DNA of 64,000 nt from assembly GCA_030867685.1 (NCBI GenBank), contig JAQOWU010000001.1, positions 682,001-746,000 of the forward strand. The letters are read 5' to 3'. The translations under genes were made by a program, and so were the position numbers. The notes under the pieces are model-generated. The model was not told the origin of the DNA, made no database searches, and saw only the letters and a list, made by a program, of their open reading frames with translations. The DNA is from Wickerhamiella versatilis (taxonomy: Eukaryota). Below are positions 344 through 40,999 of this stretch, piece after piece. The stretch's first letter is position 1. Every line of letters begins with the position of its first letter.

Positions 344-1225
344 CTACTTGACTTCCTGAGCATAAAATTCCTCAATTGACGATGGACCGCCTTCAATATT
401 GCAATCACTTTGCGCCGCTGGTCCAAACTCTGTAGCCCAAAATCTTTTCTCGTGACCCATGAGAATCTGCTGCTTGACTAGACTTTTGACCCAATCATCT
501 CTTTGTAGTTGCCGGGAAAGATCTGAAAGTCCCATCGGTGTATTTTCTAATGCTGAGCCTGCCGATGCTTGAGGCGCTACTGGTACGGATCCGGCCAGTG
601 TAGCACCCTGTGTAACTTGCTGCTGCTGAGGCTGTTGAATTGGTTGCTGTGATGGATTCTGCGATGGATGTGGTGGAATAAGCTGTTGCTGACCTTGTTG
701 CGATAAAGCTACCTGCTGGGCACCATCCGAGGTGGGCCGAGGTTGAGAACGTAATTGAGATGGCATACTTGGTGGTAATATTGGAGCTACGCCAGAGGGA
801 GGGGGACCAAGTAGTCCAGGAATATTAGGAGGAGGTATTCCAGCTATCGGAGCTCCAGCAGAAGCAGGTGCACCAAGACCAAGGGTGTTAATCTGGAACC
901 GCTGCATTCGTGCGGTTTGAAGTGCTCGCTGGTTTGCTGGCCCACGCAACCATTCAATGAATTCTTCCAGATCTTGTGCATCTTCATCAGGTAACCGGGC
1001 CCCAACAACTTGGCATTCCGTAAGGACCAAAACAGCATCCTCGAAACTAACGCTGCGCCCGCGCAATTCAGCTGCCTGTGCTGCTGTTGTGGCTACAAAT
1101 AGAAGGTGCCTAATCAAGACATCATTAAGACAGTCTAATGCATCCCGAGAAGAACGATCCAGTCCTGCTGCTCGGCATAGTTGAGCAGTTGTCACGCGGG
1201 CCACTGCCCGGTGCCAGTCGCTCAT
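344..1225 (-). CDS. TAF3: TFIID subunit Taf3-like (bromodomain-associated histone fold, Pro/Gln-rich linker)
   Basis: First ATG at 1225 gives MSDWHRAVARVTTAQLCRAAGLDRSSRDALDCLNDVLIRHL, typical of the fungal Taf3 histone fold; later EEFIEW and DDWVKSL blocks. Confidence 0.75.
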   Translation of the reverse strand: MSDWHRAVARVTTAQLCRAAGLDRSSRDALDCLNDVLIRHLLFVATTAAQAAELRGRSVSFEDAVLVLTECQVVGARLPDEDAQDLEEFIEWLRGPANQRALQTARMQRFQINTLGLGAPASAGAPIAGIPPPNIPGLLGPPPSGVAPILPPSMPSQLRSQPRPTSDGAQQVALSQQGQQQLIPPHPSQNPSQQPIQQPQQQQVTQGATLAGSVPVAPQASAGSALENTPMGLSDLSRQLQRDDWVKSLVKQQILMGHEKRFWATEFGPAAQSDCNIEGGPSSIEEFYAQEVK

Positions 1226-1361
1226 TTGAGTATTACTAAGATCACAGAAATCCAATGCATTCACTGACTTGTTTTCAAAGGTATCGACCAAGCCAGTGTG
1301 TATAAAAATACTCTAAATTGAAATATGAATGAAAATATTTATATAAAAATTACTCAAAAAA

Positions 1362-2405
1362 TTACTTTTGAGGTGCATTCTCCTGTAAGTTGAGGTCCCT
1401 GATTTTCTCTTCAAGGTCCTTTTCAAGCTTGTCATCAATCTTATCATCGGTAGTGTTCGGTTTTTCAGCCGGTTTGGGTTTACTCTCAACTTTAGCGTGT
1501 ACCTGATTGTCACCTCCTTCCTGTTTTTCCTTTGGCGCATCCTTCTTCTTGCTTGGTTTCGAAGGTGAAGATGACTCTGTTTCTGCATTGAATACATACT
1601 TCGCATTTCCATCTTTTTCAGTCACCAGGACACCCTCAATCTCAGGGAATTCACCCAATGAGCCGAGTACCAACGTGTCGTTTTTACGATCACCAAAAGA
1701 TCCCACTCTTTCCATGTTGAAAAGCCAACGCGGGACATGCGATTCAACTAATTCTGGGAGCTGAGCAAATGGAAACACTTGCAACGAAGTTCCTGCGACA
1801 ATGCACAGGTCGACATCATCATCGAAGTCTTCATCAATACAGTCAAAGTATCGAGCAGGCAATGCTTCACCAAAGAATACGATATCCGGCTTTACAAGGC
1901 CGCCGCATGCAGGACAACGACACGGCTTTTCCTCTTCCACAGCTTTTTTCACAGTGTCACCATCGACAGTCTTCCCACATTCTATACAATGATTCTCTGC
2001 GAATGAACCATGCGCCTCGACAATCTTGTCTGGATGAACGCCTGCAATTCGTTCAAGAGTATCAATGTTCTGGGTATAAACACGTCTCAGCACACCGAGC
2101 TCAGAGACCCATGAAATGAAGCGATGAAATGAGGTGGGATTAAAGTTCCCAGGGTAAAGTCCTTTAGCCAGTACATAGAAAGCCTCTGGCTTCTCTCTGA
2201 AATAGTCAATGTCGAATACTGCCTCAGGAAACGGGAGGTTCAGTTTCGCCAAATTGGCATATAGCCCTGTTCCAGGTGATCGAAAGTCGGGAATACCAGC
2301 GGCTGTAGAGATCCCTGCACCCACCATAATTACCACGTTCTTGTATTTCCCACTTGCTAAATCGCGTATTAACTTCTCTGCATTACCGGCTCCTACCGCT
2401 GGCAT
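1362..2405 (-). CDS. HST2: Sir2-family NAD-dependent deacetylase, Hst2/SIRT2 type
   Basis: GAGISTAAGIPDFRSP, YTQNIDTLER, HGSF, two CxxC Zn pairs, KPDIVFFGE, GTSLQVFPFA, C-terminal NES-like LEEKIRDLNL. Start is ATG 2405 (AAAATG) or 2432; the track start at 2522 is TTG. Confidence 0.92.
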   Translation of the reverse strand: MPAVGAGNAEKLIRDLASGKYKNVVIMVGAGISTAAGIPDFRSPGTGLYANLAKLNLPFPEAVFDIDYFREKPEAFYVLAKGLYPGNFNPTSFHRFISWVSELGVLRRVYTQNIDTLERIAGVHPDKIVEAHGSFAENHCIECGKTVDGDTVKKAVEEEKPCRCPACGGLVKPDIVFFGEALPARYFDCIDEDFDDDVDLCIVAGTSLQVFPFAQLPELVESHVPRWLFNMERVGSFGDRKNDTLVLGSLGEFPEIEGVLVTEKDGNAKYVFNAETESSSPSKPSKKKDAPKEKQEGGDNQVHAKVESKPKPAEKPNTTDDKIDDKLEKDLEEKIRDLNLQENAPQK

Positions 2406-2532
2406 TTTCTGCGGCGAGCTTGTCTTCTTCATAAAGCTTGTAGTTGCCCACTGCGGCAAATACGAACGTAGCGATTCCCAGACCAAGGCGAATTCGTGGC
2501 GGTAATGCTCGATACCGCTCAAACAAAGACAT
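2383..2532 (-). CDS. Unannotated 49-aa single-TM microprotein overlapping the HST2 start
   Basis: ATG 2532 to TAA 2383: MSLFERYRALPPRIRLGLGIATFVFAAVGNYKLYEEDKLAAENASGRSR; basic amphipathic N-terminus plus GxGxxxxxxxxxG TM helix; below the ORF-track length cutoff. Confidence 0.6.
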   Translation of the reverse strand: MSLFERYRALPPRIRLGLGIATFVFAAVGNYKLYEEDKLAAENASGRSR

Positions 2533-2555
2533 TATATAATCGGCAGGTTCTAGCC

Positions 2556-5435
2556 ATGAAGCAAAGATTCGGTTACCTAGATCTGCGGCTTGTCACACAT
2601 GAAGCTGAGCCGCAGCTTTTGAACTGTAGGCTGCAGAACATTTATAGTCTCGAGCAAAGCAGCCGTCATTTCATGCTGAAGTTCGATTCTCATGGTGAGG
2701 GAAAGCAATACGTTATTGTGGATCCGGGTCTTCGGTGCCATCTTACTCGATATCAACACCAAGTAACTCAGCAACCGAGCGGATTTGTCACTAAACTTCG
2801 CAAGCATTTGAAGACAAGACGAGTTACAGGTTTTTGGGTGGCACCGCAGTCCCGCCTATTGGTAATCACCTTCAGTGAAGGTCAATACCATTTGGTCCTG
2901 GAATTTTTTGCGGGAGGCAACATTATTCTCACAGACAGCTCTGGAAAGATATTGTCCTTGTTCCGTGTTGTTCAGCAGTCTAATTGCATGGTGGGGCAGG
3001 TATATCCACTTGACTTCACACCCACAAGTCCCCAGACTGCCCCCTCCTTGGAATATATCAAAGAAATAAAGGGTCCTATTGGTAAAGCACTATATACGAA
3101 ATTCTACGATCCGAGTGCTTCGTTGATTGAATATTACTTACGGGATGAAGGCATAGATCCAAAATCAACAGAGTACGATGTAGAGGCCGTTCAACGGGCC
3201 CTTACCCGAGCCCTTGACCACGCTCATCGTCTAATGAACCAGGCTTCGACACCAGGATTCGTTCTTCGTGCAGCAGATGAGCAATCAATTGAGTTCGAGC
3301 CTTTTCGCGAGTATTTCGATCTAACGAAGAAGGAAGGTCAAACTGTCACTGAGTATCCAACATATAACCAAACAGTGGACGAGTACTTTGGCGCTATCTT
3401 AAGCGATCGGCAAGTTAACCGGGTGGAACAATTGCACCAGGTAGCCTCTTCTCGCTTGGAAGCAGCTGAAAAGGAACGAGAAAAACGGTTGAAGGGACTT
3501 GAAGATATACAAGCAGAGAACGATCGGCGTGGGTACTCGATTCAAGCTTCTATTGACGTCGTTGACCAGGCGATACAGGCTGTTCGTGAATTGCTTCAAA
3601 CAGGAAGTGACTGGGGTGACATATGGGAATTAGTTAAAGTTGAACAGGAGAAGGGAAATACGATTGCTGAATATATTAAATCACTTGATCTTGGTAACGA
3701 ACAGATTGTGCTACGGTTGCCCAATCCTGATAATTTTGAAGAAGATGTGGATGTGAAAATCAACCTCAGTGAATCTGCATGGGCTAATGCACGCAGATAT
3801 TTTGAGGTGAGGAAGCAGGCTACTGAAAAGATGGATAAAACTGAGAAGCATGCTGCGAAGGCATATAAGTCTGCAGAGGCCAAAATCAAGCGGGATCTTC
3901 AAGCAAACCTTGCAAAGCAAAAGACTCAAAGTACTAGCTTGCAGTCCATCAGGGATCCCTATTGGTTTGAAAAGTTCTACTGGTTTTTATCCTCAGATTA
4001 CACGCTAGTCATTGGTGCTCGTGACGATATGCAAAACGAGATTTTGTTAAGACGTTACTTTGGTCCCTCTGATATTCTTGTTGGGTCAGACGCCCCTGGT
4101 GCTATGATAGTGCTTATAAAAACGCAACGCGATCCGATCCCACAAACACTGCTTCAAGCTGCAGCTTTCTGCGCGGCAACAAGCCAAAAGGCTTGGGAGT
4201 CTCGGACATCGACGCCTGCGTGGTACTTGCCAAGAGCAAAGGTACCCCGAAAAAATGCTATGGGAGACCCAATTACTGTTAATGACCTTTTATCTCTGAA
4301 TCGCGTTAGACTGCCACCTGTGCCATTAGATATGGGTGTTGCTATTCTCTGGCAAGTGGCGAAGCCTCAACAACAGGAAGCAGAGGATTCTGACGACTTC
4401 CCTGATACGCAATTCAACTCTGATGAAGAATTCCCTGATACGGCATTTGATTCTGATGCAGAACCCATAGACGAGAGTGATGCTGGTGAGGATCAAACTC
4501 CTTCTATTGGTGGACTTCACGTTTCAAATGGCTCTGAAACTGAAATTGCATCGAGCAGTGAGGAACGCGAAAATGATAAAGTGAACTTTTCGCCTTCCCA
4601 CGTCTCTCAGGTGGCACCAAAAGAGGCCGAGCGCTCGGAAGAAGATGAAAAAGTAGATAATGAAGAAAAAGCGGACAAAGTAGGGGAAGAAGATCAGAAG
4701 GAAGTAGATGAAGAGGAAGAGAAGGAAGAAGAGGAAAAATTAGAGGAGGATAAGGAAGAAGAACTAAAAGAGAACGCATCCGGGCCTAACAATGGAAATG
4801 CGCAGGGAAATAGCAGTTCTGTTCTCACGTCAAAGCTCAAGGGTAAGTCTAAAAGTGCCCAGAGAAAGTTACGCAAGTATATGGAGCAGGACGAGGATGA
4901 CAGGCAGCGTGCTATGGAGCGTCTGGGAACACTGAAGGGACTTGAACAGCAGGCTCGCGAGAAGCAAGAACAAGAAGATGCACGAAAGAAGCAACAGGAG
5001 ATACAAAGAGCACGTCAACAGCGGGCTAAAGAGGCCGAGATTAGGCGCATTGAGTCAGAGGAGGTCGAAGAGACGCCACTTCCGACTGATCTCGTGTTCG
5101 ACATTACCAAGGGTACCGAAGACTCCGAAATTAGGGGTGCTGTCGCTATGTTTGGTCCCTGGGCATCAATGCAACGCTCAAAACTACGGGTTAAGCTGGT
5201 TCCTGGTCAGCTAAAGAAGGGAAAAGCTTGTTCAGAGATTCTTAACGCGGTTGGGAAACCCAAAGAGGTGAACCTGACACCAAGACAAACCAACCTGATT
5301 AAGGGGATCCGTGCCGTGGACTTACAGGGATCTATATCTGTATCTCGCGTCCAGCTAGGTGGATCATCAGCGCAGAAGAAGGCTGCGCAATCTTCCAAAA
5401 AAGGTGCTTCTAACAGGGGCAGGAAACACAAATAA
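2556..5435 (+). CDS. RQC2: Ribosome quality control subunit Rqc2/NEMF
   Basis: MKQRFGYLDL start (cf. yeast MKQRISALDL), PSGFVTKLRKHLKTRR, LVLEFFAGGNIILTD, SAWANARRYF, WFEKFYWFLSSD, acidic middle region, C-terminal KLVPGQLKKGKA. Confidence 0.93.
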   Translation: MKQRFGYLDLRLVTHEAEPQLLNCRLQNIYSLEQSSRHFMLKFDSHGEGKQYVIVDPGLRCHLTRYQHQVTQQPSGFVTKLRKHLKTRRVTGFWVAPQSRLLVITFSEGQYHLVLEFFAGGNIILTDSSGKILSLFRVVQQSNCMVGQVYPLDFTPTSPQTAPSLEYIKEIKGPIGKALYTKFYDPSASLIEYYLRDEGIDPKSTEYDVEAVQRALTRALDHAHRLMNQASTPGFVLRAADEQSIEFEPFREYFDLTKKEGQTVTEYPTYNQTVDEYFGAILSDRQVNRVEQLHQVASSRLEAAEKEREKRLKGLEDIQAENDRRGYSIQASIDVVDQAIQAVRELLQTGSDWGDIWELVKVEQEKGNTIAEYIKSLDLGNEQIVLRLPNPDNFEEDVDVKINLSESAWANARRYFEVRKQATEKMDKTEKHAAKAYKSAEAKIKRDLQANLAKQKTQSTSLQSIRDPYWFEKFYWFLSSDYTLVIGARDDMQNEILLRRYFGPSDILVGSDAPGAMIVLIKTQRDPIPQTLLQAAAFCAATSQKAWESRTSTPAWYLPRAKVPRKNAMGDPITVNDLLSLNRVRLPPVPLDMGVAILWQVAKPQQQEAEDSDDFPDTQFNSDEEFPDTAFDSDAEPIDESDAGEDQTPSIGGLHVSNGSETEIASSSEERENDKVNFSPSHVSQVAPKEAERSEEDEKVDNEEKADKVGEEDQKEVDEEEEKEEEEKLEEDKEEELKENASGPNNGNAQGNSSSVLTSKLKGKSKSAQRKLRKYMEQDEDDRQRAMERLGTLKGLEQQAREKQEQEDARKKQQEIQRARQQRAKEAEIRRIESEEVEETPLPTDLVFDITKGTEDSEIRGAVAMFGPWASMQRSKLRVKLVPGQLKKGKACSEILNAVGKPKEVNLTPRQTNLIKGIRAVDLQGSISVSRVQLGGSSAQKKAAQSSKKGASNRGRKHK

Positions 5436-5507
5436 GTAAGTCAGTCATAGACAAAACTCCAACATCGATGTTCTTTTACGTCTAGCAGGTTTAGGCTAAT
5501 TATATGC

Positions 5508-6035
5508 TCAGTTAAATTGTTGGCGTACCGCTTTAGCGAGTCTCCCCTTGGCAAAATCGAACATGTTCCGAATTCCGCGTTCTGAGAGATCCAAATTCTG
5601 GATAGATGGTTCGTCAACCGCTTCCTTGGTCACACGAGATGCTATGACCTGAGGTTCGGTCTCAAGAATAATTCCTCTGTCTATGCATTCATCTGCAGCC
5701 AGTGTAACACGATCGTAATATTCTAGAATGGTCGACTTATCAACACCATGACCCAGCAATATATCAAGTGCGTCACGATATCCAGTCAAAACCTGATATA
5801 AAAGAGCCTCATTTTCTTCGATGTCAGCCACAATATACAGCATCACGTCTGCAAGTTGTTTGTATACAACCAGCTTTTTGTCGACAATAATCACATCTCC
5901 GTTGACGCGATGCGTTTTCGAGAATAGATGCTTCTCAAAAGATTTCGCATTATCGAAATCCGTGTAATACTTAGCTAGAAGTCGTGACCCCTCACCATCC
6001 AACAGCAGTAACGCTTGGACAGCGTACAAGCTCAT
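5508..6035 (-). CDS. RET3: Coatomer zeta subunit
   Basis: MSLYAVQALLLLDGEGSRLLAKYY longin fold; ENEALLY, DECIDRGIILET. Confidence 0.93.
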   Translation of the reverse strand: MSLYAVQALLLLDGEGSRLLAKYYTDFDNAKSFEKHLFSKTHRVNGDVIIVDKKLVVYKQLADVMLYIVADIEENEALLYQVLTGYRDALDILLGHGVDKSTILEYYDRVTLAADECIDRGIILETEPQVIASRVTKEAVDEPSIQNLDLSERGIRNMFDFAKGRLAKAVRQQFN

Positions 6036-6171: not shown

Positions 6172-7419
6172 TTAGCTAGCCATGGCACCTGTGACCTTAG
6201 CCTGCCGGTCAGAGTCATGACGTTTAGCCGCGTATTCCTCAATCTTCTCAGGATGATTTTGAAGAGCGTCCATTGCAGCTCTGAGGCCCGCTAATCTTCT
6301 ATTGTTGTCTTTACCGATACCCAAAATGTCATTTCCAACTCGGGCCTCCATTACAAAAGGGTTTTGGCTTTTCTCAACGTAAATGATCTTCTGTTGCGCA
6401 GAACCAATCTTGCGATAGAGCTCTGTTTTGGCATTCTTGTCTACCAAAATGCCTGAGTCTTTCCGGGAAAATGCGTCAACGTCAGGTTTCAATAACTTAT
6501 CCAACCAGCACTTGGTCGTTGAAATACCAGATTCATTCGTGACAGCTGCCACATATGCCTCGAAGGTATCACCCCATGCTTTATTGTGAATATCATGACG
6601 CTTTGAAACCTCCGCTGACGCACGCAGTCTCTTTGGAAAATTGTAAGCCAGGGCATATTTCCATAAATTGCTGTTGCAGACTAACCTGGATTTCCATTCA
6701 CTCAGACGACCTTCATCAGCATCTGGGAACGTGTCATAAAGTACATTTGAAACGATAAAATTAAGAATAGTATCTCCCTGAAATTCGAGTCGGTCGTTAT
6801 GAAACTCAGCATTTGCTGATCGGTGGGTAAACACTTGCTGAAGCAGCTGTTGGTTCTTGATTATTGGTAGTTCAGGTGGCCAGCTCGTATTGTCGACTTT
6901 ATGCTCAATAAGATTCATCTGCTCTATATGTTCTAGCATCGACTTAGCTTCTGCCAACTCATAGGCGGTCTTACTCTCCTCGCCAAGATTCAGAGATTCA
7001 ACCCACCCTTGGGCATATTGCAACCATTTTGCAAACTCCTCTGGACTTGAGTATGCCTGATAACTACCACCAATAGGTAGAGAGGTAGTATATATTATAG
7101 CGTCGATTAGTGGAAGCCGCCCACTCCAATAATTCCGAATGATTGACTGTGCAAGTTGAATTCGGGCCCTTGATACACCTCCCCTGTCGTAGAATTCTTC
7201 CATAAAGTCCAAATCCGCGTGCAGCAGTGGCTGAAATTTTCTTATGAGCTGTTCGAAGAGGGAGCCAACTCGAAACATATTGTCTTCAATTTCGTCGAAA
7301 CATCTATAGTCTGGCATTATATTATCATGCTTCTGATCTTTATTTTGATTCTTTGAACTACACGTTTGCTGCGAATTTGTCTTTCGTTTTTTTTCAGACG
7401 GCGCTAAGTTCCTTTCCAT
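6172..7419 (-). CDS. RNT1: RNase III (Rnt1 type: N-terminal domain, RNase III domain, one dsRBD)
   Basis: VFTHRS, signature variant NDRLEFQGD, GDTFEAY, dsRBD start DKNAKTELYRKIG, AGLRAAMDAL. Confidence 0.8.
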   Translation of the reverse strand: MERNLAPSEKKRKTNSQQTCSSKNQNKDQKHDNIMPDYRCFDEIEDNMFRVGSLFEQLIRKFQPLLHADLDFMEEFYDRGGVSRARIQLAQSIIRNYWSGRLPLIDAIIYTTSLPIGGSYQAYSSPEEFAKWLQYAQGWVESLNLGEESKTAYELAEAKSMLEHIEQMNLIEHKVDNTSWPPELPIIKNQQLLQQVFTHRSANAEFHNDRLEFQGDTILNFIVSNVLYDTFPDADEGRLSEWKSRLVCNSNLWKYALAYNFPKRLRASAEVSKRHDIHNKAWGDTFEAYVAAVTNESGISTTKCWLDKLLKPDVDAFSRKDSGILVDKNAKTELYRKIGSAQQKIIYVEKSQNPFVMEARVGNDILGIGKDNNRRLAGLRAAMDALQNHPEKIEEYAAKRHDSDRQAKVTGAMAS

Positions 7420-8112: not shown

Positions 8113-10131
8113 ATGTCGGATGATCTCAGCCCCATTAGGAGCGCTGCGCATTCTGCAAAAGAGGATCTAAAAAAAATCGACATTGCTCAGAGTCATGCAC
8201 CAAAATTTTACGATCCTGCACTTAATCCGGCTAATCAGCACGAATATCAAGAGCCTGCTCGTGGATTAAAGCCGCCTGGACCACCTCAACTTGAAGTTCC
8301 ACCAAGCACAGGGTCGCGGATTGAATTTGGAAAGGATGATATAGGAAAGGTGCGCGAAAAGGTAGAGAGTAATGACACCATTTCAACTCCAACTAATACG
8401 GAAGAAAATAATGAAAAACTTTTTCAGGAAGCATCTGACTCGATTGATGAAGCACAAGTTCGAGACATTGAGAGCCAAGAAAAGTCGCAACACTTGACAC
8501 CGCGTGATCGTCTCAAGCGATTGTACCGCCGGTATACCTGGGTGGTTGTTACATTTTGGGGTATCTTTTTCACAGCTTGGTGGGTATCTATCATAGCTCA
8601 AGATGATATGCGCCATAAATGGCTAATTCCTACGGTTCTATGGATTCTTTTCGAAATTCGCTTGATCACGTTGTACGTTCCTACACGCCCTTTACTTATG
8701 TGTGTTAATTGGGTGTGGAAACGTACGTTCATTGCGTGCCGTGACAAAATTCCGCGCAAATTTTGGACCCCTATTGAAGCTGTACTTGTTCTGATGACTA
8801 TTCTCGTTACGACATTTGCATCACCAGAAACAGATTCGTCCACGCTTAAGGATCGTGGTATCTCTTTCTTTGGCTATGTTGTATTTTATTTTGGATTTTT
8901 CTTGGCTTCCAATAATAAGAGTAAGATACAGTGGCACACGGTACTTGTCTGTATTTGGCTACAGTTTATCATTGGATTATTCGTACTCCGTACTAAAGCT
9001 GGTTATGACTTCTTCAATTGGATATCATTCATCGCTAGACGGCTTCTTCAATTTTCGCAAAATGGTGTCACCTTCCTTTCGAGTGAGGCATTTGCTAAAG
9101 GTGAAAAGCCATTCACTGCCGAATGGTTTATTGTCTCCACTCTTGCTTCACTGGTGTTTTTCGTTGCCTTTGTCCACATACTGTACTATTTTCATATTAT
9201 TCAGTGGTGTGTACGGAAAATTGGTGGCATTTGCTTCTGGCTTCTACGGATATCGGGATCGGAATCACTTGTGGTTGCGGCAACTCCTTTCTTTGGCCAG
9301 GGTGAGTGTGCTGTTCTAATCAAGCCTTTCCTTCCTCATGCAACAGAAGCAGAAATCTTCCAGTTTTCTGTGAGCTCATTTGCAACAATTGCGGGATCTG
9401 TACTCAACGGTTATATGTCCATGGGGGTACCCGGTCAAGCGTTGATCACTTCATGTGTGATGTCTATCCCGGCATCAGTTGCTGCTTCCAAGCTTGCCTA
9501 CCCGGAAACTGAAGAATCGTTGACAATGGACCAGGTTGTAATGCCTGAAGATCCGACAGAGGATTGTTATAACGTGATTCATGCTTTTTCAAATGGAGCT
9601 TGGCTGGGACTTCAGATTGCTTTTTCCATGGCGACAAACGTAATGTGCACAATTGCTATAGTGGCTCTCATTGACACCCTTCTTACATGGTTCGGCGGTT
9701 TCTGGAAGATTTACGACCCGGATCTCACACTTGAAGTCATCGGCGAATACTTATTTTACCCCGTCGCATGGCTTGTAGGTGTACAAGGGGGAGATATTTT
9801 GAAGACAGGCAAACTCATGGCTTACAAGATGGTTCAGAATGAATTTGTTGCCTATGCTCAATTGACAGCTAAAGACGGTGAATTCACTGGGATGGGGTTG
9901 AGATCCAAGATTCTGACGATGTATGCCATTTGCGGATTCTCGAACTTTGGTTCGATGGGTATTCAAATTGGTGTTCTTTCAGGGATGGCACCCAAACGTA
10001 AGGCGTCTATAGCGAAAGTCGTATTGCCTGCACTTTTCGTAGGTATGTTCTCCACTTTTTCATCAGCTGCTGTTGCTGGAATGGTAATGACAAACATATC
10101 GCAATATGCTGATACACTGGGTTTCAATTAG
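8113..10131 (+). CDS. CNT: Concentrative nucleoside transporter (CNT/SLC28), copy 1
   Basis: LQFIIGLFVLRTKAGYDFF, PFFGQGE, FATIAGSVL, SCVMSIPAS, NEFVAY, YAICGFSNFGSMGIQIG; ATG at 8113. Confidence 0.93.
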   Translation: MSDDLSPIRSAAHSAKEDLKKIDIAQSHAPKFYDPALNPANQHEYQEPARGLKPPGPPQLEVPPSTGSRIEFGKDDIGKVREKVESNDTISTPTNTEENNEKLFQEASDSIDEAQVRDIESQEKSQHLTPRDRLKRLYRRYTWVVVTFWGIFFTAWWVSIIAQDDMRHKWLIPTVLWILFEIRLITLYVPTRPLLMCVNWVWKRTFIACRDKIPRKFWTPIEAVLVLMTILVTTFASPETDSSTLKDRGISFFGYVVFYFGFFLASNNKSKIQWHTVLVCIWLQFIIGLFVLRTKAGYDFFNWISFIARRLLQFSQNGVTFLSSEAFAKGEKPFTAEWFIVSTLASLVFFVAFVHILYYFHIIQWCVRKIGGICFWLLRISGSESLVVAATPFFGQGECAVLIKPFLPHATEAEIFQFSVSSFATIAGSVLNGYMSMGVPGQALITSCVMSIPASVAASKLAYPETEESLTMDQVVMPEDPTEDCYNVIHAFSNGAWLGLQIAFSMATNVMCTIAIVALIDTLLTWFGGFWKIYDPDLTLEVIGEYLFYPVAWLVGVQGGDILKTGKLMAYKMVQNEFVAYAQLTAKDGEFTGMGLRSKILTMYAICGFSNFGSMGIQIGVLSGMAPKRKASIAKVVLPALFVGMFSTFSSAAVAGMVMTNISQYADTLGFN

Positions 10132-39915: not shown

Positions 39916-40431
39916 CTACCAAAGCCAGAGTTTCAACACCTTTCTGTGTTCCAGCGGTTCATAACGGACAATATTGCGCTGGATAAGCCAGATTACTAGC
40001 GGATTATCCGATGGTGCATACATAGGTTCATTTTGAAGAGATAAATGCACTAATTTCTCTAATACGCCAGCTCTCATTTCACTTGTTGCACCTCCTCCCT
40101 CGATGTGTCTCGAAATCACTTGAATTCGTGCTGGCAATTGCCTTAATACCTCATCGACGTGCACATGCCCCTGTGGAGTGGCTTCCTGCGTATGCAAACT
40201 TTCCTCCATTTCGGTGATGGCCTGCTGACGGTGTTTGATTTCCTCTCTTAGATTCTCGCGCTCCCTGGCTAATTCTCGTACACTGGTCTCCAAGACAGAA
40301 CGACCCCTCCGCGTGTAATCGTCACCTATAAGATCAGGGTCGAAGGCTTGACATAATTTCTCTACCCATTTTGTCGAGATATCCTCAGATTGCAACTCTT
40401 TCAATAGCCTAAGCTTAGCGCCAATGTCCAT
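39916..40431 (-). CDS. Coiled-coil protein, possibly kinetochore CENP-K/Mcm22/Sim4-like
   Basis: Central coiled coil; C-terminus PMY..SDNPLVIWLIQRNIVRYEPLEHRKVLKL resembles the CENP-K head as I recall it. Confidence 0.45.
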   Translation of the reverse strand: MDIGAKLRLLKELQSEDISTKWVEKLCQAFDPDLIGDDYTRRGRSVLETSVRELARERENLREEIKHRQQAITEMEESLHTQEATPQGHVHVDEVLRQLPARIQVISRHIEGGGATSEMRAGVLEKLVHLSLQNEPMYAPSDNPLVIWLIQRNIVRYEPLEHRKVLKLWLW

Positions 40432-40483
40432 GCATGCCGCGACAGACCACTTAGTCCTATTGTGTCTTTGTAAGCAGAAATTG

Positions 40484-40999
40484 ATGTTTCTTCGAAGAAT
40501 CTTGTCTGCTAATAGTATTCGGAGGTTTGGAACCTTTCCGCCGCGTTTAGGACTCTTGAAAGTTCCAAAGCTCGATGTAAAGCCTGCTGCCAGTGAGGAT
40601 ATAGTGCGCTGGCGTAGTGGATACCTTTCGCCAGATGCCGCATCATTAAAACCGCTTGAGGAGGCAGATGCACTCTATGCACGGCTGCACATCCATAACT
40701 GGAATCTACTTGTTACACAAGGTGACATCATTAAGCTCCCGGTGAACATGAAGGATGTCAAAGTAGGGGACAAAATAGTGTTTAACGAGGTTTCACAAAT
40801 AGGAAGTCGGACACACACATTAACAGGCTCTCCTCGCATTGATCCTGGCCTTTTCACTGTAAAAGGAGTTGTTATGGAGAAAACTCGGGTGAAGCGAGCG
40901 GTAGATCACGTTACACGACGAAGACGTCGCCACGTCAGAAATGTTGTATCGAATAATTGCCTTACGGTTATTCGCGTGTCAGAACTACGGCTTAATTAA
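40484..40999 (+). CDS. MRPL49: Mitochondrial ribosomal protein bL21m
   Basis: YARLHIHNWNLLVTQGD, IGSRTHTLTG, RRRRRHVR, TVIRVSEL; presequence from ATG 40484. Confidence 0.88.
   Translation: MFLRRILSANSIRRFGTFPPRLGLLKVPKLDVKPAASEDIVRWRSGYLSPDAASLKPLEEADALYARLHIHNWNLLVTQGDIIKLPVNMKDVKVGDKIVFNEVSQIGSRTHTLTGSPRIDPGLFTVKGVVMEKTRVKRAVDHVTRRRRRHVRNVVSNNCLTVIRVSELRLN

Follow-up and report, generated by a model that had tools for sequence, protein, structure and literature searches.

Why does the coding sequence of a sirtuin begin inside another complete reading frame of the same strand, and is that frame a gene in its own right? This question is raised by the HST2 locus of Wickerhamiella versatilis in the window, the whole stretch of 64 kb analysed here. 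Budding yeasts are the reference organisms of upstream ORF (uORF) biology and, to our knowledge, few if any of their upstream ORFs encode a conserved protein of their own. In the open full texts of PMC and bioRxiv, no work was found that ties an ORF of this type to HST2 or to sirtuins. Gene callers miss ORFs of this kind; a collection of 15 billion proteins contains the adjoining HST2 but not the exact peptide. If translated, the frame would specify a conserved membrane microprotein that annotation has missed. It would further offer a test bed for the sharing of ribosomes between overlapping frames through a cap-proximal AUG and alternative starts, for a two-way promoter within a 23-nt head-to-head spacing of start codons, and for a possible functional link of a co-encoded protein to an NAD-dependent deacetylase.

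Layout of the locus

The elements of the locus are as follows.

2383..2532, minus strand: micro-ORF of 49 codons closed by TAA, its product predicted to be a microprotein with a single membrane pass
2530..2532, minus strand: micro-ORF start codon, context TATATAATGTCT, A at −3
1362..2432, minus strand: HST2 coding sequence, 356 aa, Sir2-family deacetylase of SIRT2 type (PF02146, E 1.4e-59)
2383..2432, minus strand: dual-coding overlap of 50 nt, in which codons 34-49 and the stop of the micro-ORF coincide with codons 1-17 of HST2, read in the +1 frame
2556..5435, plus strand: divergent gene of NFACT/RQC2 type, true start at ATG 2556 and not at the ORF-opening ATG 2505

The sequence-only reading had pointed out a complete ATG-to-TAA ORF of 49 aa on the HST2 strand at 2383-2532, and both coordinates and peptide were reproduced, with the A of the ATG at 2532 and the TAA at 2385-2383. 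This ATG is the earliest of the HST2-side transcript region. Between 2532 and 2432 no further ATG occurs in any frame, which leaves 97 AUG-free nucleotides ahead of the HST2 AUG. Both candidate HST2 ATGs, 2432 (T at −3) and 2405, were found on the sequence to lie in the +1 frame of the micro-ORF, as proposed, and the start M-K-K-T is common to the closest relative of the enzyme (P0002). Upstream of ATG 2432 the HST2 frame runs for 33 codons with neither stop nor ATG; it is open back to 2531, where a TAA (2534-2532) closes it, and the limit of 2522 given earlier has to be corrected. The geometry is that of an overlapping upstream ORF, with an upstream AUG on the same strand, another frame, and a stop past the HST2 AUG.

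The view that no intergenic room is left for a separate HST2 promoter proved even understated, as the RQC2 ATG at 2556 stands head-to-head with the micro-ORF ATG, 23 nt apart. The RQC2 start is supported by the NFACT_N profile, which begins 7 residues past ATG 2556, and by RNA reads, which show a coverage trough at 2506-2552 and left read ends at 2556-2562. A palindromic TATATA occupies 2533-2538 and the micro-ORF AUG is embedded in the TATATA string.

A homologue of the peptide

A homology search had been suggested for the peptide. Exhaustive phmmer comparison with 1,835,955,588 representative proteins returned two matches at E ≤ 0.001. One of them, P0122, is a protein of 646 aa with six repeats, and its match was dismissed as due to the repeats. 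The other, P0121, is a protein of 55 aa (E 2.3e-4) that aligns with 53% identity over 36 aa, residues 4-39 of the query against 2-37 of the target. The alignment is ungapped and colinear from the N-terminus (19/36 identical), and most replacements are conservative (R/K, I/V, A/S, F/V, E/Q), while the C-terminal tails differ in sequence and, by 8 residues, in length. The shared part was delimited as follows.

2416..2526, minus strand: conserved block, residues 3-39, comprising a short N-terminal helix, P-x-[RK]-[IV]-R-L, the hydrophobic helix and G-N-Y-x-L-Y-x-x-D-K

The Smith-Waterman score of the pair is 105, a value reached by none of 20,000 full shuffles (maximum 45) and by none of 20,000 block-preserving shuffles (maximum 69). 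With the search space limited to small proteins of the same layout, the block-shuffle P of 1e-8 would by itself be borderline. In the reciprocal direction, P0121 was compared with 1,907 six-frame segments of the window and recovered the micro-ORF only (35 bits, E 8.6e-10), the runner-up segment scoring 6.9 bits. Word-based searches, queried by the peptide or by a profile of the two sequences, gave nothing beyond P0121, and among metagenome contigs scanned with the profile and with P0121 no locus was confirmed by tblastn. The amino-acid conservation described here is therefore that with one other species.

In a protein atlas (ESM Atlas), the micro-ORF and P0121 fall to three Ascomycota clusters common to both, made up of hypothetical proteins of 61, 67 and 68 aa (90, 60 and 166 members), with scores of 0.89-0.91 and 184-203 of 256 features shared (recognition 2942). 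The micro-ORF contributes the score of 0.89 with 184-189 shared features and P0121 those of 0.90-0.91 with 197-203. These clusters are the nearest neighbours of both peptides by feature likeness alone and were not reached by phmmer at E ≤ 0.001; we take the kinship as a lead.

A deduced overlap in a second yeast

If the micro-ORF belongs with HST2, P0121 should be asked for the same company, and a back-translation test of co-encoding was run with 117 M-starting HST2 homologues, every codon of P0121 and two frames, 12,402 tests altogether. Only one was positive: from codon 42 to its stop, the 3′ end of P0121 can, read at +1, also encode residues 1-14 of the HST2 orthologue P0011. The window's own pair, used as positive control, was recovered with 16 residues, and the shuffled null gave 2 hits in 248,040, the longest of 6 residues against the 14 observed. 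The overlap of P0121 and P0011 is deduced from the two protein sequences, not from DNA, and on this deduction the arrangement recurs in a second yeast, the HST2 frame being +1 to that of the micro-ORF in both species. The position of the micro-ORF relative to the orthologous HST2 thus appears to have been kept between the two yeasts. Between P0011 and the window's HST2, identity is as low as 59% in local and 51% in global alignment, and the peptide is therefore about as conserved as the enzyme. The earlier judgement that this does not look like a random uORF is borne out, since, in a distant yeast, a homologue of like size and layout runs into the beginning of an HST2 orthologue.

Codon usage and differences between strains

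The window holds 170 ATG-initiated ORFs of 40-100 aa in its six frames. The size of the micro-ORF alone is therefore not beyond chance; its conservation is. Its codon log-likelihood is 0.156 per codon, to be compared with 0.184±0.095 for real coding chunks and −0.006±0.088 for the 170 small alternative-frame ORFs, five of which reach its score. Comparison of strains revealed 17 differences in the flanking HST2 and RQC2 codons, all of them synonymous (dS 0.061), and none at 2433-2555 where 7.5 were expected at the synonymous rate (P 5e-4). If only the synonymous sites of the micro-ORF were free to vary, the expectation falls to 1.6. The sole variant in the overlap, 2389 G>A in the contig of run X19, is synonymous for Ser48 of the micro-ORF and changes Ala15 of HST2 to Val.

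These numbers bear on the possibility that the frame is a chance, non-coding ORF of the HST2 leader or shared promoter, with its AUG upstream of every real transcription start and its likeness to P0121 due to chance or to conserved regulatory DNA. ORFs of such sizes are common in the 64 kb, the missing SNPs fit a dense 123-bp two-way promoter equally well, and the exact peptide is missing from the large protein collection. However, the peptide likeness stands far above the shuffle controls, the placement at HST2 is the same in a yeast whose enzyme has diverged to 51-59% identity, and codon usage is coding-like. Moreover, across such divergence 108 nt of neutral or purely regulatory DNA would be unlikely to keep an ungapped frame with mostly conservative replacements. 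We regard a chance ORF as unlikely; the position of the transcript ends, considered below, speaks for it.

Transcripts and their 5′ ends

Nineteen runs from 11 studies contain at least half of the sampled words of 1300-5500, which speaks against an assembly error; the index lists no RNA run among them. RNA reads were taken from runs X23 and X24, chosen by species label, which represent one unstranded sample of another strain in one growth state and placed 1,238 and 1,278 reads on 1801-3200; run X20 (share 0.05) covered 2994-3200 only. RNA depth over 2365-2505 is 134-236 and matches the depth of the HST2 body, the reads contain neither joints nor indels there, and transcription is continuous from HST2 through the body of the micro-ORF. 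A bump in depth at 2365-2411 is no larger than other bumps within HST2, and a separate short transcript of the micro-ORF was discarded on that ground.

The same reads dispose of a reading in which a 1-nt assembly or sequencing error, or a hidden intron, splits one gene for a membrane-anchored sirtuin. Only the geometry speaks for it, as the HST2 frame is open and ATG-free for the 33 codons above 2432. The assembly-error and intron-fusion readings fail because the reads show neither indel nor splice: 1801-3200 is free of both in the two runs at a depth of about 150-240x, and an independent contig of 1,833 nt is likewise without indel or joint. The two-frame arrangement recurs, in addition, in the second species. 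The error put forward from the sequence alone is refuted, and we consider a split gene of either kind practically negligible. An intron joining the micro-ORF to HST2 was dropped for want of joints in the RNA reads, and a Sir2 protein with an N-terminal membrane anchor was dropped with it, the frames being +1 apart without indel or joint and 0/120 HST2 homologues being fused to such a segment.

The 5′ ends of the transcripts are less simple, and two further features are needed.

2510..2528, minus strand: apparent 5′ ends of HST2-side transcripts, pile-ups at 2510/2511, 2518 and 2528, inside the micro-ORF
2529..2555, no strand: trough in RNA coverage, 27 nt, between the divergent transcripts, containing the micro-ORF ATG and the palindromic TATATA

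The outermost pile-up, at 2528, is 4 nt short of the micro-ORF AUG and the whole range lies 4-22 nt from it. Summed depth in X23/X24 drops from 139/134 (2459-2505) to 17/26 (2506-2552). In the first-mate-on-plus class of X23, depth goes down stepwise (43, 16, 8) and some two molecules extend beyond 2528, which means that about 5% or fewer of the molecules seen in this class cover the micro-ORF AUG. At face value this favours one of the earlier proposals, an HST2 transcription start inside the micro-ORF (2510, 2518, 2528), which stays viable. It also lends weight to the chance-ORF reading, as the apparent ends lie downstream of the AUG and the AUG is within TATATA. On the RQC2 side, X23 and X24 end at 2556-2562, at or after RQC2's own ATG. 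Because the RQC2 mRNA must contain its ATG, 5′ ends are under-reported by at least several nucleotides, and the argument against a transcribed micro-ORF AUG is softened, not removed. If TATATA were a working TATA box, the micro-ORF AUG would fall upstream of the transcription start.

Features of the predicted peptide

2440..2493, minus strand: hydrophobic, putative membrane-spanning segment, residues ~14-31, from the hydropathy of both homologues and the predicted helix 12-46

A basic amphipathic leader followed by a clean transmembrane helix had been read from the sequence. With a net charge of +3 in residues 1-15 the leader is indeed basic, but its amphipathicity is weak (moment 0.25-0.47) and it is interrupted by L-P-P. 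The hydrophobic stretch is present but moderate rather than clean, with Kyte-Doolittle means of 2.00 over 15 residues (14-28) and 1.37 over 19 residues; P0121 gives 1.79 and 1.53, respectively. The classical cut-off for 19 residues is about 1.6, and both peptides fall under it. The helix is flanked by +3 on its N-side and −1 in the first ten residues past it. AlphaFold2 predicts helices at residues 3-8 and 12-46 with a mean pLDDT of 85, and one face of the conserved helix carries small and polar residues.

No Pfam family was matched at E ≤ 1 by the micro-ORF or at E ≤ 10 by P0121. Among the sequences of solved structures in the PDB there was no relative; the best matches, FliR (E 0.31) and a light-harvesting protein (E 0.33), were judged to be chance. 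The nearest neighbours in a protein language model, with similarities of 0.75-0.79, are small proteins of the mitochondrial inner membrane, namely MITRAC7, COX6C, DUF4500 and ATP synthase k. As the micro-ORF does not match the profiles of these families, the likeness is one of feature space, and it hints weakly that the mitochondrial inner membrane may be the cellular site.

Proposed choice between two start codons

With moderate confidence, we read the micro-ORF as a conserved single-pass microprotein under selection, co-encoded with HST2 and forming the first cistron of the HST2 unit. What we infer from the observations above is that it is translated, that its product enters a membrane, and how the start site is chosen. 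The product would be a microprotein of ~50 aa that begins with basic residues, continues into a single helix of moderate hydrophobicity, one face of which is small, polar and conserved, and has an acidic stretch past the helix. Its AUG would be the first on the HST2 strand, in good context and ~0-25 nt from the mRNA 5′ end.

The 50-nt overlap includes 17 HST2 codons, so one scanning ribosome can give the microprotein or Hst2, never both. Reinitiation at HST2 is excluded, as the micro-ORF terminates (2383) only after both HST2 ATGs have been passed. From this either-or translation it follows that Hst2 would be made via leaky scanning or from transcripts that start inside the micro-ORF. In the first route, ribosomes would skip the cap-proximal AUG of a very short leader; in the second, alternative or additional, internal transcription starts would yield Hst2. 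Of the earlier idea of one mRNA giving two proteins, leaky scanning is thus viable, being compatible with the continuous transcription, and reinitiation is ruled out by geometry. Frequent skipping of cap-proximal AUGs in yeast is described in PMC10259493. In green algae, short 5′ UTRs and leaky scanning lead to bicistronic expression in which ORF 1 encodes small membrane proteins, according to PMC11892635.

The conserved peptide may also belong to an overlapping uORF that sets Hst2 output in cis only, by capturing scanning ribosomes and possibly by nascent-peptide or NMD effects, the peptide having no membrane role of its own. Conservation and a position upstream of HST2 in two species fit this equally well. 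However, the conservation resides in the N-terminal and hydrophobic residues 3-39 while the C-terminal tails diverge and differ by 8 residues. The opposite pattern, a conserved C-terminus, is expected for an exit-tunnel peptide acting at termination. A plain ribosome trap would not need 49-55 conserved codons either, and the small and polar helix face together with the annotated small-protein neighbours in the atlas looks like a folded membrane partner. On the other side, an upstream overlapping AUG in good context must repress HST2 on the mRNAs that carry it, and in the yeast reporters of PMC10259493, overlapping uORFs repressed ~10% more than those that terminate before the main AUG, and stronger repression was also seen for uORFs close to the cap. 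We hold a purely cis-acting role to be possible but rather improbable. Cis-regulatory and microprotein roles are mutually compatible.

Among fungi, the classic uORF with a conserved peptide is the one for the arginine attenuator peptide of CPA1/arg-2. Like overlapping and conserved-peptide uORFs, the micro-ORF has an upstream AUG, both peptide and position are conserved, and its translation would compete with that of HST2. Unlike typical regulatory uORFs, it is longer (49-55 codons), hydrophobic and ends inside the main ORF, and its conservation is N-terminal and membrane-helix-like rather than C-terminal. The human SLC35A4 alternative protein and STREMI, mitochondrial or membrane microproteins encoded by uORFs, are reported to be likewise one-helix small proteins encoded upstream on a dual-coding mRNA; their ORFs are in tandem, whereas the yeast micro-ORF overlaps out of frame and has no sequence relation to them. 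The algal test loci, with TOM22 and OST4 as ORF 1, have among their hallmarks a short 5′ UTR and fewer AUGs ahead of ORF 2 (PMC11892635). The micro-ORF resembles them in a leader of ≤ ~25 nt, if its AUG is transcribed, and in the 97 nt devoid of AUG. It differs in that the ORFs overlap and that the contexts, weak for ORF 1 and strong for ORF 2 in the algae, are reversed here (A versus T at −3).

Possible coupling to Hst2 and frameshifting

A broader proposal would be that across distant budding yeasts the cytosolic sirtuin Hst2 is obligately co-encoded and functionally coupled with the microprotein; we consider it unlikely. In one version, the microprotein would regulate Hst2 or be its partner at the membrane, and start-site choice would trade its synthesis off against that of Hst2. 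In the other, a +1 shift at the micro-ORF stop would give a membrane-anchored Hst2 isoform.

As a programmed event at the micro-ORF end that yields a minor anchored isoform beside the free enzyme, the +1 shift is very improbable in our view. Shifting at the stop, ribosomes would fuse the peptide to Hst2 15-19 residues ahead of the Rossmann motif, and the HST2 frame is +1 in both species, though this has one chance in two. Against this, both species keep an own HST2 AUG, P0002 shares the start of the window's HST2, and among 120 HST2 homologues not one begins with a fused segment resembling the micro-ORF (best E 7.6). The site in the window, CGG-TAA-T, is not among known shift sites, and CGG is not rare there (152/968 Arg codons). 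The frameshift fusion proposed from the sequence alone thus finds no support in the window, given the own HST2 start, the unfused homologues and a stop context unlike shift sites. The second species' micro-ORF is, by deduction, forced to end in GCG-TGA plus a pyrimidine; this GCG-TGA follows from the Arg-Asp encoded in the overlapping HST2 frame and may be accidental. GCG followed by UGA is the +1 shift site of S. cerevisiae OAZ1 (PMC3113565). Compared with this OAZ1 site, CGG-TAA-T of the window differs, while the deduced ending in the second species matches, which we note as a lead.

Structure of the HST2–RQC2 locus

The 49-codon frame that the sequence-only reading had described on the HST2 strand, here called the micro-ORF, is present with the peptide quoted, and both candidate ATGs of the sirtuin gene HST2 (2432 and 2405) sit in its +1 frame. 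No further ATG occurs in any frame from 2532 to 2432. The HST2 frame is indeed open upstream of its ATG; the limit was placed at 2522, and it is 2531, where TAA 2534–2532 closes the frame.

ATG with A at 2532, TAA at 2385–2383, minus strand: micro-ORF, 49 codons
1362–2432, minus strand: HST2, Sir2 family (PF02146, E 1.4e-59)
ORF-opening ATG 2505, assigned start ATG 2556, plus strand: NFACT/RQC2-type gene (RQC2), from NFACT_N profile and RNA coverage

The RQC2 start was assigned to 2556, the ATG next after 2505, because the NFACT_N profile begins 7 residues past it and RNA coverage over 2506–2552 is almost nil. The start codons of the micro-ORF and RQC2 therefore stand head to head with 23 nt between them. 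The spacer between the HST2 and RQC2 ATGs (2433–2555) spans 123 bp, less than at any other clear divergent pair in the window; by first-ATG ORF coordinates the remaining divergent pairs are 211–903 bp apart, a doubtful overlapping pair (40424–40431) excepted. The promoter of each gene must fall within the transcribed region of the other. The genes of the window are intron-poor, and the best named relatives of HST2 come from Wickerhamiella, Lipomyces, Sugiyamaella and Blastobotrys (59–67%), which places the window in a budding yeast of an early-branching lineage. A 12-codon ATG ORF (2519–2557, minus strand) overlaps the RQC2 start codon in antisense and stops a little way into the micro-ORF; it is relevant only if transcripts begin that far upstream.

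A homologue of the micro-ORF peptide

Over its six frames the window has 170 ATG ORFs of 40–100 aa; size alone is no argument against chance, and the case for the micro-ORF rests on conservation. An exhaustive phmmer search of 1,835,955,588 representative proteins gave two matches at E ≤ 0.001. One, P0122, is a 646-aa repeat protein with six weak matching stretches and was rejected as an artefact. The other, P0121 (55 aa), shares the size of the micro-ORF peptide and, from the N-terminus on, its layout, and aligns without gaps over 36 residues (query 4–39, target 2–37) with 53% identity and E 2.3e-4. Identities lie in the hydrophobic stretch and beyond it (E, Y, L, P and R-L before, G-N-Y-x-L-Y-x-x-D-K after), and replacements are mostly conservative. 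The Smith-Waterman score of 105 was reached by none of 20,000 full shuffles of the query (maximum 45) and by none of 20,000 shuffles that kept N-flank, helix and C-flank as blocks (maximum 69, Gumbel P ~1e-8). A reverse search with P0121 against the window's 1,907 six-frame segments matched the micro-ORF alone, at 35 bits; the runner-up scored 6.9 bits. By itself the match is strong, not overwhelming, its weight depending on how many small proteins of the same layout the library contains.

Probable conservation of the overlap with HST2

Whether any HST2 homologue could be encoded in a different frame over the 3′ part of P0121 was examined by enumerating all codon choices for 117 M-starting homologues, every P0121 codon and two frames (12,402 tests). 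A single combination succeeded: P0011, a distant HST2 orthologue (59% local and 51% global identity to HST2 of the window), with its start within P0121 codon 42 in the +1 frame. In these back-translated proteins the first 14 residues of P0011 fit up to the P0121 stop and residue 15 fixes that stop as TGA. As a positive control, the pair in the window itself was recovered (codon 34, +1 frame, 16 residues), while with shuffled N-termini 2 of 248,040 tests succeeded, the longest over 6 residues. The result indicates that a homologous small ORF would enter the HST2 start of a second, distant yeast in the same frame relation, and this predicted recurrence is the decisive addition. The peptide is conserved about as much as the sirtuin, and neutral or merely regulatory DNA would be unlikely to hold an ungapped 36-codon frame over such divergence. 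With P0121 homology and the recurring position at HST2, the earlier view that this is not a random uORF is borne out; given that conserved position, a chance ORF is unlikely. The arrangement works like overlapping conserved-peptide uORFs, and a purely cis-acting role of that kind is a plausible, if not very probable, reading, compatible with a dual role.

A +1 frameshift giving a membrane-anchored sirtuin had also been suggested. It finds no support in the window, where the site is CGG-TAA-T and CGG is used for 152 of the 968 Arg codons; of 120 HST2 homologues, none is fused. The P0121/P0011 overlap offers a lead in the second species, since it would force the micro-ORF to end in GCG-TGA plus a pyrimidine, and the +1 site of S. 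cerevisiae OAZ1 is described as a GCG codon followed by UGA (PMC3113565). The Arg-Asp codons of HST2 may simply dictate this ending.

The N-terminal tails of HST2 homologues are highly variable. The closest relative of the window's HST2 (P0002) and HST2 itself both have M-K-K-T...P-x-K-x-P, and M-K-K-T forces x-E-[K/E]-[N/D] in the micro-ORF frame, which corresponds to the conserved L-Y-E-E-D-K motif. The tail may be shaped by a dual-coding constraint.

RNA evidence and proposed mode of expression

Two unstranded raw-read runs, X23 and X24, representing one sample and one condition from a different strain with the same species label, were analysed over 1801–3200. Joints and inserted or missing letters were absent from the 1,238 and 1,278 RNA reads and from an independent contig, which refutes both the 1-nt assembly error put forward earlier and an intron joining the micro-ORF to HST2.

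Summed RNA depth around the HST2 and RQC2 starts
2365–2411: X23 236, X24 196
2412–2458: X23 190, X24 172
2459–2505: X23 139, X24 134
2506–2552: X23 17, X24 26
2553–2599: X23 47, X24 82

Pile-ups of molecule ends occur at 2510/2511, 2518 and 2528 towards HST2 and at 2556–2562 towards RQC2. For first-mate-on-minus molecules the right-hand end was taken as the beginning, because the opposite reading predicts a depth over 2506–2552 above that observed. At face value, HST2-side transcripts start 4–22 nt downstream of the micro-ORF AUG, and one class has about 2 of its 43 molecules extending past 2528. These 5′ ends are the main evidence against translation of the micro-ORF. Their weight is limited by the single sample and condition and by the same libraries ending at or after the RQC2 ATG, which RQC2 mRNA must contain, so that the reads fall at least several nt short of the true 5′ ends. 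A palindromic TATATA (2533–2538) directly precedes the micro-ORF AUG; if it functions as a TATA box, the start sites would lie downstream of the AUG.

We propose that the HST2 transcription unit would have the micro-ORF as its first cistron. Reinitiation is ruled out because the micro-ORF stop (2383) lies beyond both HST2 AUGs (2432 and 2405). As a ribosome initiating at 2532 would be unable to make Hst2, the sirtuin would come either from ribosomes passing the micro-ORF AUG very near the cap or from transcripts starting within the micro-ORF. Frequent skipping of cap-proximal AUGs is described in yeast (PMC10259493), which bears on the former route. The −3 position is A for the micro-ORF AUG and T for HST2 ATG 2432, the upstream context being the better, which speaks for position or TSS choice rather than leakiness driven by context. 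Conserved bicistrons described in green algae are expressed by leaky scanning; their 5′ UTRs are short and few AUGs intervene, ORF 1 at the two test loci being TOM22 and OST4 (PMC11892635). The present arrangement works like these algal dual-coding mRNAs for small membrane proteins and like those outlined for mammals; unlike in the algae, the upstream start here has the better context. Open full-text literature yielded nothing relevant linking HST2 or a sirtuin to a uORF, upstream ORF or microprotein. Evidence of its translation, or of a functional tie to Hst2, would add to the importance of the micro-ORF.

Coding signals within the species

The codon usage score of the micro-ORF is 0.156 per codon, against 0.184 ± 0.095 for real 49-codon coding chunks and −0.006 ± 0.088 for 170 small alternative-frame ORFs, five of which reach its value. 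Outside the HST2 overlap it scores 0.103, versus −0.012 and −0.087 in the other two frames. Between the RNA-run strain and the window, all 17 differences in 1801–3200 are synonymous in HST2 or RQC2 (dS 0.061, 278 synonymous sites). None falls in 2433–2555, where the synonymous rate predicts 7.5 (P 5e-4), or 1.6 were only synonymous sites of the micro-ORF free; a dense promoter could be an alternative source of this constraint. The sole variant within the micro-ORF, 2389 G>A in the contig of run X19, is synonymous there and Ala15Val in HST2, a single event that was given no weight.

Synonymous differences cluster at 1896, 1899 and 1902 (HST2 codons 177–179, window 1895–1903). Reads of X23 and X24 have short loose ends on either side and X19 contigs break there too. 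In this zinc-ribbon part of HST2 a haplotype may diverge locally, or a small block may have been substituted.

Predicted protein

AlphaFold2 on the two-sequence alignment gave helices at 3–8 and 12–46 (mean pLDDT 85). The hydrophobic core is moderate, with Kyte-Doolittle values of 2.00 over 15 residues and 1.37 over 19 (1.79 and 1.53 for P0121). Acidic residues directly follow the helix. The N-flank, earlier termed a basic amphipathic leader, is basic (+3) and only weakly amphipathic (moment ≤0.47, interrupted by L-P-P). G19, T22, A26, G29 and N30, conserved in P0121, would share one helix face, which suggests helix–helix packing. Neither a Pfam family nor a relative among solved structures was found, and the predicted product is outside every named protein family tested. 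Protein-atlas comparisons take the micro-ORF and P0121 to the same three Ascomycota clusters of 61–68-aa hypothetical proteins (0.89–0.91) and, more remotely, small mitochondrial inner-membrane families (0.75–0.79); these alignment-free likenesses serve as leads.

Gene neighbourhood

344–1225, minus strand: Bromo_TP-domain protein, TAF3-like, first of the gene order 344–6035, followed by HST2 and NFACT/RQC2
5508–6035, minus strand: small clathrin-adaptor-type chain, zeta-COP-like, after NFACT/RQC2
6172–7419, minus strand: RNase III with dsRBD, Rnt1-like, an ordinary neighbour
8113–10131, plus strand: concentrative nucleoside transporter, an ordinary neighbour

The order over 344–6035 presumably resembles YPL009C–YPL015C on S. 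cerevisiae chromosome XVI and would then be old conserved synteny. At 39916–40999 two opposite-strand ORFs overlap head to head by 8 nt, one of 171 aa with no Pfam family and one of 191 aa that carries a ribosomal L21 domain of bacterial type and is probably a mitochondrial ribosomal protein; probably one start is wrongly placed, or else the 171-aa ORF is no gene.
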